DNA from: a virus
Taxonomy: Duplodnaviria > Heunggongvirae > Uroviricota > Caudoviricetes
DNA length: 35,072 nucleotides
IMG/VR virus record: IMGVR_UViG_2698536477_000006
Reading direction: 5' to 3' (one strand)
Positions 8,504-28,538 of this stretch are shown in pieces (the stretch's first letter is position 1; each line of letters starts with the position of its first letter). The notes below the pieces were generated by a model. That model did no database searches and was not told where the DNA came from. It saw nothing but the letters and a program-made list of their open reading frames with translations. A program made the translations under genes and the position numbers.

Positions 8504-9832
8504 CTATAAATCAATTAGTTCAAAATTATCATCAATATCTAGAGTACCAATATTGATGGAAATTGTAGAGTTTACTGTACTTCTGATAAAAGTTAATAGC
8601 CCTATGAGTTTAGGCATTAATTCCTCATCAATACCACCCCTCACTACAGCTATAATTTCTCCTTGTGTTATATCTTCCCGCTCTAAAAACTTTTCAAGCT
8701 GTTGGATAGCAGAAAATAAGCGAGTCCTCATTGAGATCAATAAACCCCGAGAAGAAAAGCTTTTAATTTCCACAGCAATAACATCACTTTCTTTTTTAAC
8801 TATTAAATCTATAGTTGGCCTACATCCCAAAGAGGGTGACAGGTCAACTTCGAATCCATTTCTTATGTAAAATTCCGCAACAGATTTTTCGGCCAAATGT
8901 TCTATTGCAATTGGATTTTGGGATTGATAACTATATATAATTTGATTGCGGTCTTCCTCATCAAGATCAATCTCCCCTAGCTTGTTTATTGCACCATTGA
9001 GGATTTCTTTTACTTGGTTTGATAAACTTCTTATTTCACAAAAATCCTGTTTAGTTAAAAATCTGTTATGTGCAACCTTATTTCTCAATTTGTAAAGTCG
9101 CTCCCATTTTCTTTCAAGATGTTGCGAGTTCTCCTCCAGGAGAGTAGAGAAATACTTCTCCCAATTTGATTTGGGTACATATTTAAGTATTTTATTTTTA
9201 TCGGACTCATCAAAATTCGTTTTGATAAGAATCCTATCAAGCTCATCCAGAGTTATATCTCTCTTCTTTTGGAACAAAACTTCTGATAGATTTATGAAAT
9301 CAAGCTTGTAAAGATCATTCAAATACACATCATCTTCTTCAAATTTTTCGATTTTTTTCACTAAGTCTGGATGAATGGCTTCCTTTGACCAAGCCATGCC
9401 TACATTAATAAGCATAAATTTACTTATTAATTTCCTCATTACGTTTTCAACATCATTTATTATAGGGTAAGACTTATGCGCATAATATCTTCCAATATCA
9501 TCCCAAAGAATATTTATTACTGTAGATTCAGGGTTTATCCTTTTGCATAATTCTTTTATTTTATCTCCAACCTCAGAAAATTCATCAATTAATTCTTCGC
9601 TTGTGTTTTCCAATGCAATTATGAAATAACGTTCTTTGTTGGATGGGATGTTATTCGTTTCAACATTGAATTTAACCGTAATTAACGGATTCGATCTTGG
9701 GGTTTTCTTATATGTTAGTTTGCGCCCCGTGATTGAGATAAGCGAGTCAATTTTTAGAAAGTCAATAAAAGCTTTTTTACTATTGCAAAAAGAATCATCA
9801 TTTGTGACAAGAACCAAAAATTCAAGTTTCAC
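8504..9832 (-). CDS. Cargo protein at the Z/fun hotspot: uncharacterised 442-aa protein with HEPN-like Rx4H motif and PD-(D/E)xK nuclease-like motif (candidate anti-phage / abortive-infection effector)
   Basis: Long ORF in a markedly AT-rich island between FI and G. RNKVAH at aa 250-255 (nt 9068-9085) fits HEPN Rx4-6H. P-T-I-D-LIV ... VIAV-E-I-K at aa 339-357 (nt 8762-8818) fits a restriction-endonuclease-like D...ExK core. Own terminator downstream. Confidence 0.6.
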   Translation of the reverse strand: MKLEFLVLVTNDDSFCNSKKAFIDFLKIDSLISITGRKLTYKKTPRSNPLITVKFNVETNNIPSNKERYFIIALENTSEELIDEFSEVGDKIKELCKRINPESTVINILWDDIGRYYAHKSYPIINDVENVMRKLISKFMLINVGMAWSKEAIHPDLVKKIEKFEEDDVYLNDLYKLDFINLSEVLFQKKRDITLDELDRILIKTNFDESDKNKILKYVPKSNWEKYFSTLLEENSQHLERKWERLYKLRNKVAHNRFLTKQDFCEIRSLSNQVKEILNGAINKLGEIDLDEEDRNQIIYSYQSQNPIAIEHLAEKSVAEFYIRNGFEVDLSPSLGCRPTIDLIVKKESDVIAVEIKSFSSRGLLISMRTRLFSAIQQLEKFLEREDITQGEIIAVVRGGIDEELMPKLIGLLTFIRSTVNSTISINIGTLDIDDNFELIDL

Positions 9833-10728: not shown

Positions 10729-12858
10729 TTATACCTGCGCCACGTTATACCATGTCCCGTTAATGTATTTCTGCACCGGTCTGTAATATACGCCACCAAT
10801 GTTATCGGCAGAGTTTGAGCCGGTATCCTGAACAATAATGCCGGTATATACACACCCTGACGGTACCTGATGTGTCCATGTCATGCCATTGTTCGCAGGT
10901 TTGTATGTGGCGGCACCACCAAGCCGGATATCCCGGACATAGCGGGAGTCAAAGTTACCGTAATCTGTGGGATTAACACGCCCCGTAATATTTATGGTTT
11001 TATTACTTTGAATGCTACCGGAGACAAAGCGCATAACATGAACGTTATTAGCATAAACATCCAGATTACCGTCGCCATTTTGTTTAAAGCCTGTGTCATT
11101 ATCACCCAAAACAATCGAGTTACCGCCAAGAGCACTGGATGTTCCGATGCCCAGTGCACCATTCAATTGACCTCCAGATAATGGCAACGCCCCAACATCA
11201 GCAGCAGTCGGTTTAATGTGCGAACTGTAAATTACATATACAGTTCCATCTGTCAGGCCTGTTGGTTTATTCGCTGTATAAGATGGTGATGTATGAATCG
11301 TTACGCTGGCGTTACTGGTATAATCCCACTGAATATTAACACCTGTGGCGTAATTACCTATTTCAACATAAACATCATAGGTATCACCGGATGTATTCAC
11401 CCATGCAAAATTAGTAAATCCAACCGATGTCCGTCGCCATAACGCACCAGTAAGACCTTTTGGATTTCCATTTCCCGCACGAAGAACAAGTTCAGATATA
11501 CCAGCCTGCATAGGGGAGTTAACATTATATCCAGCACCACCAATCAGACTTATGTAAACCACGGAACTGGCCTGTGGCATGGTTACAGTTGCCAGCCTGA
11601 ACCATCCTGTACCACCACTAAAAGACATGGTTGTTGAATTTGTTGCACCAATATTGCGCAGGAATAATCTTTTATCAGGAATATCCGCACCGTTCTGATC
11701 TTTCTGAAGACGTTTCTCAGCATTGTCATAGGCAGACTTCACCGCTTTTGGTGTTGCGGCGAGCGTTTCAGACGTGCTGTTAGTCGCACTACTGAGCTGA
11801 ACAAGGCCTTTTCGCGCCGTGGTGGCATCCTGCGCAGTATATTTCCCGTTAGCAAGGTCATACGCGACCTTTACCGCCTTTGGTGTTGCCGCAAGCGTTT
11901 CTGAATCGCTGTTGGTGGCGCTACTGAGCTGGACAAGACCTTTTCGCGCCGTGGTGGCATCCTGTGCGGTATATTTCCCGTTAGCGAGGTCATATGCTGC
12001 CTTTACCGCCTTTGGCGTTGCCGCAAGCGTTTCAGAATCGCTGTTGGTGGCGCTACTGAGCTGAGCAAGCCCTTTTCGCGCTGTGGTGGCGTCCTGTGCA
12101 GTGTATTTCCCGTTAGCAAGGTCATATGCTGTCTTTACTGCTTTTGGCGTTGCGGCGAGCGTTTCAGACGTGCTGTTAGTCGCACTACTGAGCTGAACAA
12201 GGCCTTTTCGCGCCGTGGTGGCATCCTGCGCAGTATATTTCCCGTTAGCAAGGTCATATGCGGCCTTTACCGCTTTCGGCGTTGCGGCCAGTGTTTCAGA
12301 CGTGCTGTTGGTCGCACTGCTTAACTGAGTAAAACCTTTTGCGGTCAGCGAGGCGTCCGGGTGACGTCGTGACTGTTCGTGCTCTGCAATTTTGTCATCA
12401 ACGTAATCCTGCGTCGCCATCACCGTTGTGGTGTCAATGGTCAGCGCCACTGAGGCCACACTGCTGACGATGATGACCATGCGACAGGTCTGCGAACGCC
12501 CTGAGCCTTCGGCAAGAGCTGGCTTATAACTTTCGGCCATGTTCGCCACGGCAATTAATGTTCCCGCATCATCGTACAGGCCAAGCTCACGCATCCAGAA
12601 ACCGCCCACCTCCGGCGGAATAACCAGCTCTGCGATAATATAATTACTGTTTCGTTTGTCCTGACTGATTTTGTTCAGCGCATGTCGCCAGACTTCGTGG
12701 ATAAGCCCGGTCTGTCCGGCATCCGGGACAGGCAATTTACCACCGCCATCCCCGACGGCCATCGTGGTAATGTTGACCTTCCGCCCTCCCGGTGCGGTTG
12801 CCGCTGCCAGCTTTGCTGCACCGGCAGTGGTGATAACGGTTTTGAATTTTGTGCTCAT
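10729..12858 (-). CDS. H: Tail fibre protein H (conserved P2-type N-terminus, repeat-containing shaft, divergent C-terminal receptor-binding region)
   Basis: 709 aa; N-terminus MSTKFKTVITTAGAAKLAAA... is the P2 gpH type; internal 44-aa tandem repeats; Gly/Ser/Thr-rich C-terminal half. Confidence 0.9.
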   Translation of the reverse strand: MSTKFKTVITTAGAAKLAAATAPGGRKVNITTMAVGDGGGKLPVPDAGQTGLIHEVWRHALNKISQDKRNSNYIIAELVIPPEVGGFWMRELGLYDDAGTLIAVANMAESYKPALAEGSGRSQTCRMVIIVSSVASVALTIDTTTVMATQDYVDDKIAEHEQSRRHPDASLTAKGFTQLSSATNSTSETLAATPKAVKAAYDLANGKYTAQDATTARKGLVQLSSATNSTSETLAATPKAVKTAYDLANGKYTAQDATTARKGLAQLSSATNSDSETLAATPKAVKAAYDLANGKYTAQDATTARKGLVQLSSATNSDSETLAATPKAVKVAYDLANGKYTAQDATTARKGLVQLSSATNSTSETLAATPKAVKSAYDNAEKRLQKDQNGADIPDKRLFLRNIGATNSTTMSFSGGTGWFRLATVTMPQASSVVYISLIGGAGYNVNSPMQAGISELVLRAGNGNPKGLTGALWRRTSVGFTNFAWVNTSGDTYDVYVEIGNYATGVNIQWDYTSNASVTIHTSPSYTANKPTGLTDGTVYVIYSSHIKPTAADVGALPLSGGQLNGALGIGTSSALGGNSIVLGDNDTGFKQNGDGNLDVYANNVHVMRFVSGSIQSNKTINITGRVNPTDYGNFDSRYVRDIRLGGAATYKPANNGMTWTHQVPSGCVYTGIIVQDTGSNSADNIGGVYYRPVQKYINGTWYNVAQV
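11719..12345 (-). repeat. About five tandem in-frame 132-nt (44-aa) repeats inside the tail fibre gene
   Basis: Protein motif QLSSATNS(T/D)SETLAATPKAVKxAYDLANGKYTAQDATTARKGLx recurs with 44-aa period from about aa 174 to 378; the nucleotide copies are near-identical with a few substitutions. Confidence 0.85.
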
Positions 12859-12868
12859 TATTCCTCAC

Positions 12869-13399
12869 TTATCCGGGGTAAACCGTAATTACATCGCCGT
12901 CGTAAGCCACACCACCGGCGAACAGGTAGCCGGGAATGTCCCGGGTAATGTTCAGGCCAATAAGGTGGCTGCTTGCAGGTTTGGCATCAGCAATCAGCCG
13001 TTCCATTTCCTGATACATTGCCTCTGTGATGCCACTTTCCAGTACACCAATATCAAGCCGGAAGGTGCCGGGCGGGTCACTGTTTTCCCACCACTCCGTC
13101 ACGTTGATGAGATAGCCGAGCGGCTCCACCACACGCCGGATTGCACCTATAGTGCCTTTATGACAGTGGATGAAATACGCATCGCGGATAACGGCGCGTT
13201 TTGTCGCTTCCGGCCACTTTTCATCCCACCTGTCGACCGAAAACGCCCACGCCAGCCACGGCAGCAGATTTGCCGGACAGGTGTCCGGGTTCCACAGCTC
13301 ACGAATACTGACCGGCGTTTTTTCAATTTCCGCACAGGCTTTTGCGGCGGCGACCTCAAGCGGTGATGAGCCGGTCGGCAGCAGTCGCGAATCACTCAT
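12869..13399 (-). CDS. I: Baseplate assembly protein I
   Basis: 176 aa; P2 gpI length and position. Confidence 0.9.
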   Translation of the reverse strand: MSDSRLLPTGSSPLEVAAAKACAEIEKTPVSIRELWNPDTCPANLLPWLAWAFSVDRWDEKWPEATKRAVIRDAYFIHCHKGTIGAIRRVVEPLGYLINVTEWWENSDPPGTFRLDIGVLESGITEAMYQEMERLIADAKPASSHLIGLNITRDIPGYLFAGGVAYDGDVITVYPG

Positions 13400-24848: not shown

Positions 24849-26819
24849 TTAAAGGTCATCAATTAAACCTAAAGGCAAACCGTCCTCACCAACCGAGCTA
24901 TAATGAGCGATAATATTCGAAAGTTCACCAGTAGAAAACGAATTAGGCAAATCATTATCAACTAATATAATCTGGCACGGAACATTTTTTCTTTCTGCTT
25001 TTTGAACTGTATTCAATAGTTGTTCATAAATATTTTGATACTTCATCGGATCTGACATTCCCTCAAGGTCATCCTCGAATGCAAGAGTTTCTTTTGAATA
25101 TTTTTCCTTGGTCTGTTTCCCTAAATATTTGCCAACCGTATCAAATATCAAAAGTAAAGGATGGTTAACATTATGATCTATTGCATAATCAAGAATAGAC
25201 AAAAGATACCCAATAGAAGAAATAGTTCTCAAACCTCCGGATGTTATTTTAAAATATTCTTTTTCTCTTATAACAGGAATGTAATAGCTTTCAGAGATTT
25301 TTATCCCCGTTCTGTTTTTGATATTAATACCCTTCAAATACTGACTAAATCTATCACCCAAACCTTGTAAAATGCCCTCCATGCTAGGTGCGTTTTTCTT
25401 TAACGCCTCCAAGCGTTCAGTTAATGCTTCAATATCTTTTCTCAGTACCTGATACTTTTCAAGCAGTTCCTCTTGCTGGTTTCTAACCTTCAAATCTTTT
25501 ACTAACTGCTCCCTAACCTTCTCATTTTTTGAGATCTCTTTAATATAAAAATCTCTCTGAGTCAAGAATGGTGTAATCATTGACTGGCTTTCTTCGTCAA
25601 TCAATTCTCTCAACTCGTCAAGTCGTTCATCTAATTCCTTTTTATAACCTGATTCTTTTTTTAATTTAAATGACATTTCTGAGATCATGTCATTAATATT
25701 TCGTCTACGTCGACTAAGTGAATTCAACTCTTCATTAAGATCTTTTTCTGATGAGATTTCAAATGGAAAATCAGAATCATCTATTTTAATGTGGCTATCA
25801 CAGACTGGACAGGAAAATACTTCCTTATCCAATACACCAATGCGAGAATTTGCTGTTTTAATCGCTTTGAGTTTTTCAATATCATTATCATAGTCATTTT
25901 TTAACCGCGAATATTTATCAATCTTATCCTCAAGCGCAGTAATATTTAATATGCACTCTTTGTATTTAAGCGAAATAAAATTGTGAGCATCTTTCAATTC
26001 TGTATACTGTATGGAATCCGCTTTCATATTTTTATCGAGAGCAGACAAACCTGCAACAAGTTCTTCTAAAACAAGATCTATCCTATTAATCTCATCATCA
26101 ATTGATTCAATCGTTTCATAGTCTGTATCGCGAAGAAATTCAGATATTATCTGATACTTCCTATTTAATTCCGTTACTAAACTACTTTTTGCAGATATTT
26201 CACCTTGGAGTCTGGCGATGCTTTCATCCAACACATTGAACATGTATTTAAAAACTTCTTTCGTAAATGCGTAGCGGGACCAATCACCCAATCGCAAGAA
26301 AGATTTACTACCAATATCATCCTGACTTACATAAACAAATTTATATATATTTCTAAAACTTAACCTGCGCATCTGTGAATGAGCTTTAGAAGGAGACACC
26401 TTAATTTCAATCTTTGGAAAATTAAGACTATCAAGTAAAAACTCCGAAAAAACACCATCAACATTTGATAATGGGCTATAATTAGGAGCGTATTTTTTCG
26501 GAAAATGTTTATGTAAATCATCAAACTTACAACGATAAACTTCTATTGCTTTTTTATGATCATAGATATCTCTTACGATTGTGAATACAGTATCATTGAT
26601 CACTACTTCAAGAGCAGCATAGTTTACTGATGTTTTTATTTCATCTGCTAAATCTATAGAGCTAGCACCTAAAAGATAATTAATAAACTCCAGAATGCTT
26701 GACTTACCTGTGTCAGAGTCTCCGTAGATAACATTGAGACCTTTATAAAAAGTAGTGACGTAGTTTTTACGAACGCCAACAAGAATCAAACTATTGATAT
26801 TGAGATATGATTTCATCAT
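24849..26819 (-). CDS. SMC/Rad50-like ABC ATPase (Lamassu LmuB-like / ABC-3C ATPase component): N-terminal Walker A, long central coiled-coil with CxxC hook, C-terminal signature-like and Walker-B-like motifs
   Basis: 656 aa; Walker A GDSDTGKS at aa 33-40; central region rich in E/K/L heptad-like sequence; CPVC at aa 337-340 (nt 25800-25811); ITSGG at aa 525-529; hydrophobic strand LLLIFD at aa 555-560; start overlaps stop of the upstream gene. Confidence 0.75.
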   Translation of the reverse strand: MMKSYLNINSLILVGVRKNYVTTFYKGLNVIYGDSDTGKSSILEFINYLLGASSIDLADEIKTSVNYAALEVVINDTVFTIVRDIYDHKKAIEVYRCKFDDLHKHFPKKYAPNYSPLSNVDGVFSEFLLDSLNFPKIEIKVSPSKAHSQMRRLSFRNIYKFVYVSQDDIGSKSFLRLGDWSRYAFTKEVFKYMFNVLDESIARLQGEISAKSSLVTELNRKYQIISEFLRDTDYETIESIDDEINRIDLVLEELVAGLSALDKNMKADSIQYTELKDAHNFISLKYKECILNITALEDKIDKYSRLKNDYDNDIEKLKAIKTANSRIGVLDKEVFSCPVCDSHIKIDDSDFPFEISSEKDLNEELNSLSRRRRNINDMISEMSFKLKKESGYKKELDERLDELRELIDEESQSMITPFLTQRDFYIKEISKNEKVREQLVKDLKVRNQQEELLEKYQVLRKDIEALTERLEALKKNAPSMEGILQGLGDRFSQYLKGINIKNRTGIKISESYYIPVIREKEYFKITSGGLRTISSIGYLLSILDYAIDHNVNHPLLLIFDTVGKYLGKQTKEKYSKETLAFEDDLEGMSDPMKYQNIYEQLLNTVQKAERKNVPCQIILVDNDLPNSFSTGELSNIIAHYSSVGEDGLPLGLIDDL

Positions 26820-27328
26820 TTCTCCTTGAAGACTTGATTTATAACAGAGTTTAACTTAGAGGTAGGCAATGCTTGTAGCGGTAACAATGCTTCGGATAGT
26901 CGTTTTATTTCTTTAAAATATCCATCAGTCAATGAGCTAGCAAATTCCTTACCTTTTTCAGATAAAAATAATTTAACACTCTCATTATTTTTTTTCTCAG
27001 CTGAGAGCAATCCCCGCAATGACATAATTTTTATAAGATATTTCACTTTGGAATTGTCGAATAAGATATCTACATTTGTTGAAAAACTCTTTATTGTATA
27101 AGTTAACTGGGACTCGACACAAGCAGGCTTTTTCCCCGAAACTGTAAGAGCATAATCAATTTTTGATGGGTTTTTTATCAGATACATAAAAATTTGTATT
27201 TTATTAATATCTAATGATAACACTCCTTTTTTGCTATGAGATAATATAGATATAGCAATGGCAAGCATAGCAAAATTCAAGCTATACTCTTCATCAAGAG
27301 GAATATACGGCAAGTTATTTTTCTTCAT
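26816..27328 (-). CDS. Small middle component (LmuC-like / ABC-3C MC) of the cassette
   Basis: 170-aa ORF wedged between effector and ATPase with overlapping start and stop codons on both sides; AT-rich like its neighbours. Confidence 0.6.
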   Translation of the reverse strand: MKKNNLPYIPLDEEYSLNFAMLAIAISILSHSKKGVLSLDINKIQIFMYLIKNPSKIDYALTVSGKKPACVESQLTYTIKSFSTNVDILFDNSKVKYLIKIMSLRGLLSAEKKNNESVKLFLSEKGKEFASSLTDGYFKEIKRLSEALLPLQALPTSKLNSVINQVFKEK

Positions 27329-28538
27329 GATTACCTCGCCGTAATTGCTCCAAAGTTTCTACGCTGGTTTCAGATGACCAGACAATATCCCTGTCATTTT
27401 TGTTAGCCAGTTGATGCAACATTCCTTTCTTATGTATCGTTTCTAAACTTTTTATAAGAGAATCTAACGACGACTTATCCTCTTGGGCTATTCGTCTATG
27501 AACAGCAGCAATAAATTTATCTGGGGAAATTGAATTCGCGATATATTGCTCATACTCTTCCTGGTAAATCTCCCTTATTTTAGAATACAAATGACCAAGT
27601 AGTTTCCTATCGTAATCACTCGTAAAAATATTTCTCGCAAGCTCAGCATTATAATAATATTCCTTTGCATGCATAGCGATATCCTGATGTATATCTGCGA
27701 CAATCATTTTTAAGACGAAATACTCATTATCATATTGTTTCTCATCAGAAAAACGCTCAACACATATCTTCTTGGGTGCTTCTAAATTTATCTGCTGAAT
27801 AAATTGCTTTACCGCAACAAACACTGTAGACGAGCTGTTTTCGGGCTTGCAAATTGAGCTATGCCCTTCATTAACTGCAATTGAGTTATTTCGTTCACTA
27901 TCCATCGGTAATGCGCTTTTTTTATCAACTATAGTGTCATGAGAACCATAAACATATCTAGTGATAGGAAGTTTTTTGCTACAATTTATCCAGCGCCTAT
28001 TCAACGTATCGGTCGCTTCACTTAACAATCCAAGATCTACTAACTGAGCATTTGAAGATACCATTGAAGTTATATTCGCCAATTTAGCACCAAAGTGAGG
28101 GACTGCTAACGAAATGAATCCAATTATATTAGATTGTTCCTCATGCTCAACTTTTTTTAGAATTAGATTTTTTGATATTAACCCCCCCATACTATGGGCG
28201 ATTATTATAATTCGAGAGTAATCACTTAGCGTTACCCTAATCTCAGTATACAATAACTCAGCTATTTCATCAGTTGGTAAATTTCTCTCTAACTTATTTT
28301 TCTTAGAGAAAATACGAGCCCATAATCCTGACGTTTTAGCATACGTTTGTGTAAATTTGGTGAAATAATTGAAACATGCAATATCAAATACATTGCCAAT
28401 GTCTTCATCTTCTGCTAATAGTTTTGGAAATGAAGTTTCTTTATTAAAGTTCCATGTTTCCAAACCACCATTTAATCCATGTACAAATAGTATCAGGCTA
28501 TCTTTTTTCTCGTGGCTTATCCATTCAACCATGCTCAT
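27315..28538 (-). CDS. Effector component: N-terminal alpha/beta-hydrolase (lipase/esterase-like) domain plus C-terminal helical domain (LmuA-like with hydrolase effector)
   Basis: 407 aa; oxyanion HG in LFVHGLNGG (aa 17-25); nucleophile elbow AHSMGG with Ser116 (nt 28191-28193); candidate Asp201 (GSHDTIVD) and His226 (NEGHSS) give a Ser-Asp-His triad in canonical order; first gene of the three-gene operon. Confidence 0.7.
   Translation of the reverse strand: MSMVEWISHEKKDSLILFVHGLNGGLETWNFNKETSFPKLLAEDEDIGNVFDIACFNYFTKFTQTYAKTSGLWARIFSKKNKLERNLPTDEIAELLYTEIRVTLSDYSRIIIIAHSMGGLISKNLILKKVEHEEQSNIIGFISLAVPHFGAKLANITSMVSSNAQLVDLGLLSEATDTLNRRWINCSKKLPITRYVYGSHDTIVDKKSALPMDSERNNSIAVNEGHSSICKPENSSSTVFVAVKQFIQQINLEAPKKICVERFSDEKQYDNEYFVLKMIVADIHQDIAMHAKEYYYNAELARNIFTSDYDRKLLGHLYSKIREIYQEEYEQYIANSISPDKFIAAVHRRIAQEDKSSLDSLIKSLETIHKKGMLHQLANKNDRDIVWSSETSVETLEQLRRGNHEEK

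Follow-up and report, generated by a model that had tools for sequence, protein, structure and literature searches.

The stretch of DNA that was analyzed (the window, 35,072 nt) is a P2-like E. coli prophage. Its tail fiber gene is on the minus strand between genes for a baseplate protein and a tail fiber assembly protein (Table 1), and the resulting gene order, I-H-G, is that found in P2, fiAA91-ss and other records. The first-pass annotation had named this gene H, and our analyses confirmed that assignment. A Pfam search placed PF12571 (Phage_tail_fib) on aa 1–151 of the product (197.3 bits against a cutoff of 23), the best PHROG was phrog_381 'tail fiber protein' (E = 6e-280), and BLASTP indicated 96% identity to P2 gpH over aa 1–243. 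The PF12571 domain and the I-H-G order together identify the gene as one of the P2 gpH type. In addition, the gene had a 100% DNA match in the complete genome of E. coli E275a (NZ_CP035865), where it is annotated as 'tail fiber protein'. A scan of the window for tRNA genes detected none.

Tandem Repeats Finder identified a repeat array within H at 11725–12318, with a period of 132 nt, a copy number of 4.5, 87% matches, no indels and a score of 873, and a gap-free repeat search gave start-to-start spacings of 132, 132 and 132 nt. The period is in frame with the 709-aa ORF and produces four full 44-aa units followed by the first 25 residues of a fifth (11725–12327). Five stretches of H were matched by PF03406 (Phage_fiber_2, 'phage tail fibre repeat'; 323.2 bits in total, cutoff 22, E = 9.6e-99), with the best covering model positions 1–41 of 42. 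The units belong to this family, as they score above its gathering threshold and stand in tandem within a phage tail fiber protein. The Pfam register begins 8 residues before that of the first-pass annotation, which had described five in-frame repeats of 44 aa (132 nt) at 11719–12345. Those repeats were recovered in both the DNA and the Pfam searches, the 132-nt periodicity was evident in Tandem Repeats Finder and in the gap-free search, alignment of the units supported the proposed consensus and unit length, and the coordinates were right to within about 20 nt.

Table 1. Features of the tail fiber locus in the window; aa numbers refer to the H protein
Feature	Coordinates	Strand	Evidence or comparison
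gpI-like baseplate protein (176 aa), immediately upstream of H	12869..13399	-	phrog_48, E = 1e-99; P2 I position
Tail fiber gene H, P2 gpH homologue, 709 aa	10729..12858	-	ORF, Pfam, PHROGs, P2 alignment, RefSeq annotation
N-terminal tail-collar / baseplate-attachment domain, aa 1–151	12406..12858	-	PF12571
Lead-in PDASLTAKGFT, aa 167–177, resembling the unit tail QDATTARKGLV	12328..12360	-	translation
Unit 1, aa 178–221, type A	12196..12327	-	99.2% nt identity with E. coli 2013C-4830 unit 1
Unit 2, aa 222–265, type B	12064..12195	-	98.5% identity to ECC-1470 unit 2
Unit 3, aa 266–309, type C (NSDSE)	11932..12063	-	99.2% identity to ECC-1470 unit 3 and LR882050 unit 2
Unit 4, aa 310–353, second type-C unit	11800..11931	-	3' half same as 3' half of unit 1
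Unit 5, partial, aa 354–378	11725..11799	-	first 47 nt same as unit 2
110-nt duplicate, copy A (3' end of unit 1 + first 47 nt of unit 2), putative donor	12149..12258	-	2–10 differences from 12 other five-unit alleles
110-nt duplicate, copy B (3' end of unit 4 + first 47 nt of unit 5), putative recipient	11753..11862	-	13–17 differences from 12 other five-unit alleles
Junction module NAEKRLQKDQNGADIPDKRLFLRNIG, aa 379–404; distal modules differ beyond	11647..11724	-	alignment to Mu S
Distal fiber part, aa 405–709, presumed receptor-binding end	10732..11646	-	C-terminal match to Mu S; middle without homology to P2 H
Tail fiber assembly protein, gpG-like, 175 aa	10198..10725	-	phrog_136 'tail fiber assembly protein', E = 4e-78; P2 G position

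The array is preceded by a short lead-in that resembles the tail of a unit. BLASTP aligned aa 168–177 of P2 to unit tails, and the first PF03406 repeat match begins at aa 170. At the other end, only about the first 25 residues of the fifth unit (QLSSATNSTSETLAATPKAVKSAYD) are retained before it diverges into unique sequence. The last unit and the junction module behind it aligned to residues 105–175 of the phage Mu tail fiber protein S. The distal part had a weak PF20744 match, under the cutoff, in the Pfam search, and its C-terminal ~70–85 aa matched Mu S (5yvq) and a 'short tail fiber' chain (9cuy). An 81-aa ORF at 11819–12064 on the plus strand, considered as a possible coding or RNA role of the array on that strand, was rejected as a mirror artefact of the repeat.

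P2 gpH (AAD03286.1) is 669 aa long, the length given in the first-pass annotation, and has the same N-terminal domain, unit 1, start of unit 2 and gene order as the window. However, it carries one full and one partial unit, against four full and one partial in the window. The distal ~330–430 aa of the two proteins are largely non-homologous, although their extreme C-termini are partly similar (37% identity), and the distal part in the window is the shorter of the two. The repeats add 132 aa and the distal sequence removes 92 aa, which gives the window H a net 40 aa over P2 H. The proposal that the repeat tract explains part of the length difference was therefore correct.

Divergence and order of the repeat units

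Pairwise comparisons of the full units in the window showed them to be 93–98% identical as protein, with 41 of 44 positions invariant among the four, but only 83–92% identical as DNA, so that the earlier description of the copies as near-identical applies to the protein and not to the nucleotide sequence. Each pair differed at 10–22 of 132 nt, and 9–17 of these differences were at third codon positions. By the Nei-Gojobori method, the four full units had dS values of 0.34–0.81 and dN values of 0.01–0.06, with dN/dS of 0.03–0.09; units 3 and 4 were the closest pair (92.4% nt identity, dS 0.34). Between alleles, dS in the flanking parts of H was 0.04–0.13, several-fold under that between units, while dS in the array compared by position was 0.14–0.32, above the flanks. 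A near-invariant protein accompanied by such a large synonymous pool indicates strong purifying selection, and not fresh duplicates. The near-identity at synonymous sites that marks young repeats was absent from the array, with the exception of a single 110-nt perfect tract.

Comparison of 37 full units from 12 alleles showed that they clustered by position in the array, as type A (the first unit), type B (the second, with NSTSE) and type C (with NSDSE). Unit 1 of all 12 alleles fell in one cluster. The order in the window is A-B-C-C'-partial, and the common form has four units, A-B-C-partial. The architectures among 80 viral contigs, with p for the partial unit, were ABCp (33), Ap (21), ABCCp (9), ACp (7) and ACCp (4). 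Each unit of the window was closer to a unit of some other phage (95–99%) than to its own neighbors. The recurrence of ordered unit types in many phages indicates that the array is old and has been kept constant by purifying selection at the protein level, although the high synonymous diversity could partly reflect units imported from diverged alleles by recombination, and not great age.

The near-fixed differences between types did not extend beyond the first 35 nt of the unit, and the remaining two-thirds contained a pool of synonymous polymorphism common to all types. This restriction, together with the elevated dS of the array relative to the flanks, suggests ongoing shuffling between units and between alleles. 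Copy number was also variable, as was found when the H genes of relatives were checked: there are two units in P2, three in fiAA91-ss, four in 12474II and YpM115, and five in the window, EC18, ECC-1470 and H15. The IMG/VR loci had four units in 38 cases, two in 23, three in 10 and five in 9. Overall, the range was 2–5 in P2-like coliphages and prophages and 1–4 in other enterobacterial genera. A search for E. coli alleles matched 2184 records. A four-unit query returned mostly partial proteins and gave no clean copy-number maximum for gpH-type fibers (most of the best 120 matches were named 'partial', and several were on contigs of 0.5–0.9 kb).

Variation in copy number was also observed within single distal modules. 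Alleles with the window type of distal module had three, four or five units and those with two other types had 2–4 and 3–5; the P2-type distal module was accompanied by two units in every case (n = 21). The four-unit E. coli alleles P0028, P0092 and P0105 (665 aa) have the same N-terminus and distal part as the window H and the types A-B-C-partial, but one C-type unit fewer; such four-unit proteins with the distal part of the window were found on 104–196 contigs each, compared to 81 for the window protein. Together, these data showed that recombination acts on the array and that alleles alike in their distal module can still differ in copy number.

The first-pass annotation had interpreted the array as the product of a recent expansion by unequal recombination, on the basis of few substitutions between the copies. 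Close alleles do differ in copy number, one perfect tract is common to two places in the array, and truly fresh duplicates were identified in other lineages (units 2 and 3 of L095 were 100% identical, and units of L103 were 97% identical). However, the inter-unit differences in the window are mostly synonymous, with a dS far above that of the flanks, and the array is therefore not a fresh expansion. In addition, the nine five-unit arrays among the viral contigs all had a second C-type unit, in the order A-B-C-C-partial, and yet were just 92–97% identical to the window array, and each window unit had its nearest match in another phage. We consider a recent expansion of near-identical copies distinctly unlikely. 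The part of the earlier interpretation that invoked recombination within the array was upheld by the perfect tract and by the variation in copy number, and fresh unit duplications do occur in other genera, but not in the window array.

A perfect duplicate within the array

The longest exact match between units was a perfect match of 110 nt between two tracts that are three units apart (copies A and B in Table 1). The corresponding two tracts in each of the 12 other five-unit alleles differed from one another at 9–16 of 110 positions, and in the 11 other alleles of the initial comparison, exact runs between units did not exceed 71 nt. The first tract of the window resembled those of the other alleles and the second did not, which points to gene conversion, with the unit 1/2 junction as donor and the unit 4/5 junction as recipient. 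Based on these sequence comparisons, we believe the duplicate is best explained as a recent intragenic conversion of at least 110 nt in that direction. Such a conversion would have turned NSDSE into NSTSE in unit 5.

Position and probable role of the array in the fiber

The array is placed between a conserved N-terminal domain that would dock to the baseplate and an exchangeable distal part that would include the receptor-binding end. The junction directly behind the last unit (NAEKRLQKDQNGADIP…) is common to the window H and Mu S, and the alternative continuations seen beyond it were RLFLRNIG, DTFTKNIG and GRFLSNIN. Phage Mu S (gp49; PDB 5yvq, 9ki1, 8ju3) resembles the window protein in having a Pf2 unit with the same junction behind it (…QLTSATDSPSETLAATAKAVKIAMDNANARLAKDRNGADIPNK…) and a related C-terminal tip, but it has only a single unit and its N-terminal domain is unlike that of the window H. 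The EPclB-type fibers of EHEC also use a Pf2-type repeat as a fiber module, although in these proteins a single Pf2 is located between two collagen-like segments and the N- and C-terminal domains are different (PF08400, PF06820). Pf2 has been listed among the modules of the collagen-like tail fiber proteins of EHEC prophages, and EPclA, which is related to the EPclB type, was shown to be trimeric (PMC3368898). The units in the window are typical members of PF03406 (InterPro IPR005068, 'phage tail fibre repeat 2'), with no difference from the family.

When the whole protein and a profile of the unit were searched against the Protein Data Bank, the repeat was matched in Mu fiber chains only. In the in-situ study of Mu, the N-terminus alone of gp49 was built, and the existing C-terminal crystal structure was fitted into the fiber map (PMC11915804). 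AlphaFold2 monomer models of aa 140–440 without an alignment (mean pLDDT 43.1) and of aa 160–400 with a 79-sequence alignment of Pf2-containing proteins (mean pLDDT 44.4) were both of low confidence and hence too poor for fold searches. The only element with slightly higher confidence in both models was a predicted short helix that recurred over PKAVKAAYDLA in each full unit. The literature that we found on the structure or function of PF03406, or on repeat number in P2 H, consisted of domain listings and one modelling paper, in which the trRosetta and homology models of the family disagree (TM-score 0.21).

Based on the position of the array in the protein and by analogy with other fibers, we interpret it as a set of PF03406 ('Pf2') modules in proximal gpH, ordered, under selection and polymorphic in copy number, that probably serves as a spacer governing length or flexibility. 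Distal modules switch behind the junction, and published swap experiments in the P2-like phage P88 altered host range by way of a hypervariable C-terminal region of 31 aa (PMC5285337). For these reasons the array is taken to be a modular, length-polymorphic segment of a presumably trimeric fiber, and likely a spacer instead of an element of specificity. Each unit would then add a fixed increment to the fiber between the baseplate and the receptor-binding tip, and copy number would change through out-of-register homologous recombination between units. We also considered that the synonymous divergence may have been selected to stabilize a required array against recombinational collapse, with the copy number of 2–5 tuned to the thickness of the host surface layer (O-antigen or capsule). 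This extension of the spacer reading is speculative and seems to us rather unlikely; if it were true, the gain and loss of units would represent a second, geometry-based axis of host range that does not depend on the receptor-binding tip.

The conserved units and the junction may also provide homology for swaps of distal modules between phages. An alternative to a spacer would be that the array is mainly a DNA-level platform for recombination of the distal host-range cassettes, with the protein function of the extra units being secondary. The mosaic breakpoints are directly behind the last unit or the junction, where three other continuations occur besides the P2 type, and the same unit and junction are present in Mu S. 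Units were also found at about 82% DNA identity in genes for 'prophage tail fiber N-terminal domain-containing protein', and in other E. coli fiber genes with different N-termini, which would fit such a platform. However, DNA homology alone would tolerate amino acid change, against which the low dN/dS and the near-invariance of the units argue. In addition, one unit would be enough as a recombination site, and the platform reading leaves the ordered multi-unit arrays unexplained. We therefore regard it as very improbable that recombination is the main purpose of the array, and favor a spacer.

The feature is real, but it is of a kind already known, being a curated Pfam family in gpH-type, Mu S and prophage collagen-like fibers. 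As a catalogued repeat whose copy number was 1–5 among the relatives sampled, it is an ordinary finding. The synonymous divergence, the ordered types, the independence of copy number from the distal module and the one datable conversion tract refine this picture, and make the array a tidy example of the evolution of repeats in phage fibers, one that opens no new question and is of limited practical use. For annotation, the tract should be described as a catalogued repeat in a standard P2-type fiber whose exact protein is already public. For the engineering of fibers, the unit array and the junction represent natural boundaries for the exchange of distal modules.

The unit count in public genomes

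Public tail fiber proteins with this type of repeat are in many cases partial, with several on very short contigs, which suggests that repeats of the PF03406 kind break short-read assemblies. The warning in the first-pass annotation that the array is a likely site of assembly collapse was thus reasonable for the family, whose members are often at contig ends, but we found no artefact here. An assembly artefact is an unlikely source of the five units, and an expansion or mis-join of a shorter array is extremely improbable, given that the exact 709-aa protein is on 81 public contigs from several sources, that the 2130-nt gene is 100% identical in the complete genome NZ_CP035865, and that the units differ enough for unique placement of reads, the longest exact match between them being the 110-nt tract.

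The length of the gene was the same in most of the complete-genome matches listed. Among the 40 best of these with full coverage, 38 spanned exactly 2130 nt and the other two spanned 1998 nt, which is one unit fewer. The H genes of P2-like prophages differ by 132-nt steps, a property to be considered in assembly and typing, as is the frequent position of the repeat family at contig ends. Two further complete genomes had H genes that were 99.2% identical to that of the window, and in one of these, strain G6/7, the first 1200 nt of the gene, array included, were 100% identical.

Repeat units in other fiber genes and proteins

In the array of 44-aa Phage_fiber_2 (Pf2) units of L095, from an uncultured Enterobacteriaceae MAG, units 2 and 3 were 100% identical and shared an exact run of 170 nt, and that of L046, an IMG/VR locus, contained an exact run of 140 nt at an offset of one unit. 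Both arrays thus hold very young unit duplicates, whether produced by genuine recent duplication or by the assembly process.

Further E. coli fiber proteins (P0121-P0126, P0137, and P0160) were found to be built with the Pf2 unit of the window H protein. These had longer super-repeats composed of two Pf2 units and a His-containing linker (…AGKAPSSHTHPWNQITGVP…), and wherever the start was present the N-terminus was unlike that of the window H protein (MGNLNETEKWEENIYQLE… in P0124 and P0160). P0137 was encoded on a plasmid, and several of these proteins came from contigs of <1 kb that contained only the repeat.

Labels and annotation of H genes

Three enterobacterial P2-type H genes that were 75-85% identical to the query (L112, L118, and L120) came from assemblies labeled Chryseobacterium sp., Vagococcus sp., and a Collinsella MAG, likely a consequence of contamination or mis-binning. 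The H gene of E. coli 2013C-4830 (L008; NZ_CP027325, 2870408-2872725), an allele with four units, is annotated in RefSeq as a frameshifted pseudogene.

Other reading frames in the window

The antisense ORF within the array was rejected as a gene, being a mirror artifact of the Pf2 repeat. The 442-aa ORF occupies the same place as fun(Z) in P2. Its sole match was a sub-threshold one to HEPN_Swt1 (E = 5.6e-4, 20.6 bits versus a cutoff of 27.5), and it may be a further accessory or defense gene. Adjoining replication gene A was a trio of adjacent genes resembling an ABC-three-component (ABC-3C) system, which is probably cargo of a P2-like prophage variable region.

Putative accessory and rejected reading frames, with window coordinates
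Feature	Position	Strand	Remarks
442-aa ORF	8504-9832	-	downstream of fiber assembly gene
81-aa antisense ORF	11819-12064	+	wholly within Pf2 array; also repetitive
656-aa protein	within 24849-28538	-	weak SMC_N/AAA_23 matches
170-aa MC4 middle component	within 24849-28538	-	PF20290, E = 5e-27
407-aa alpha/beta-hydrolase	within 24849-28538	-	PF20284 CTD8, E = 1.7e-35
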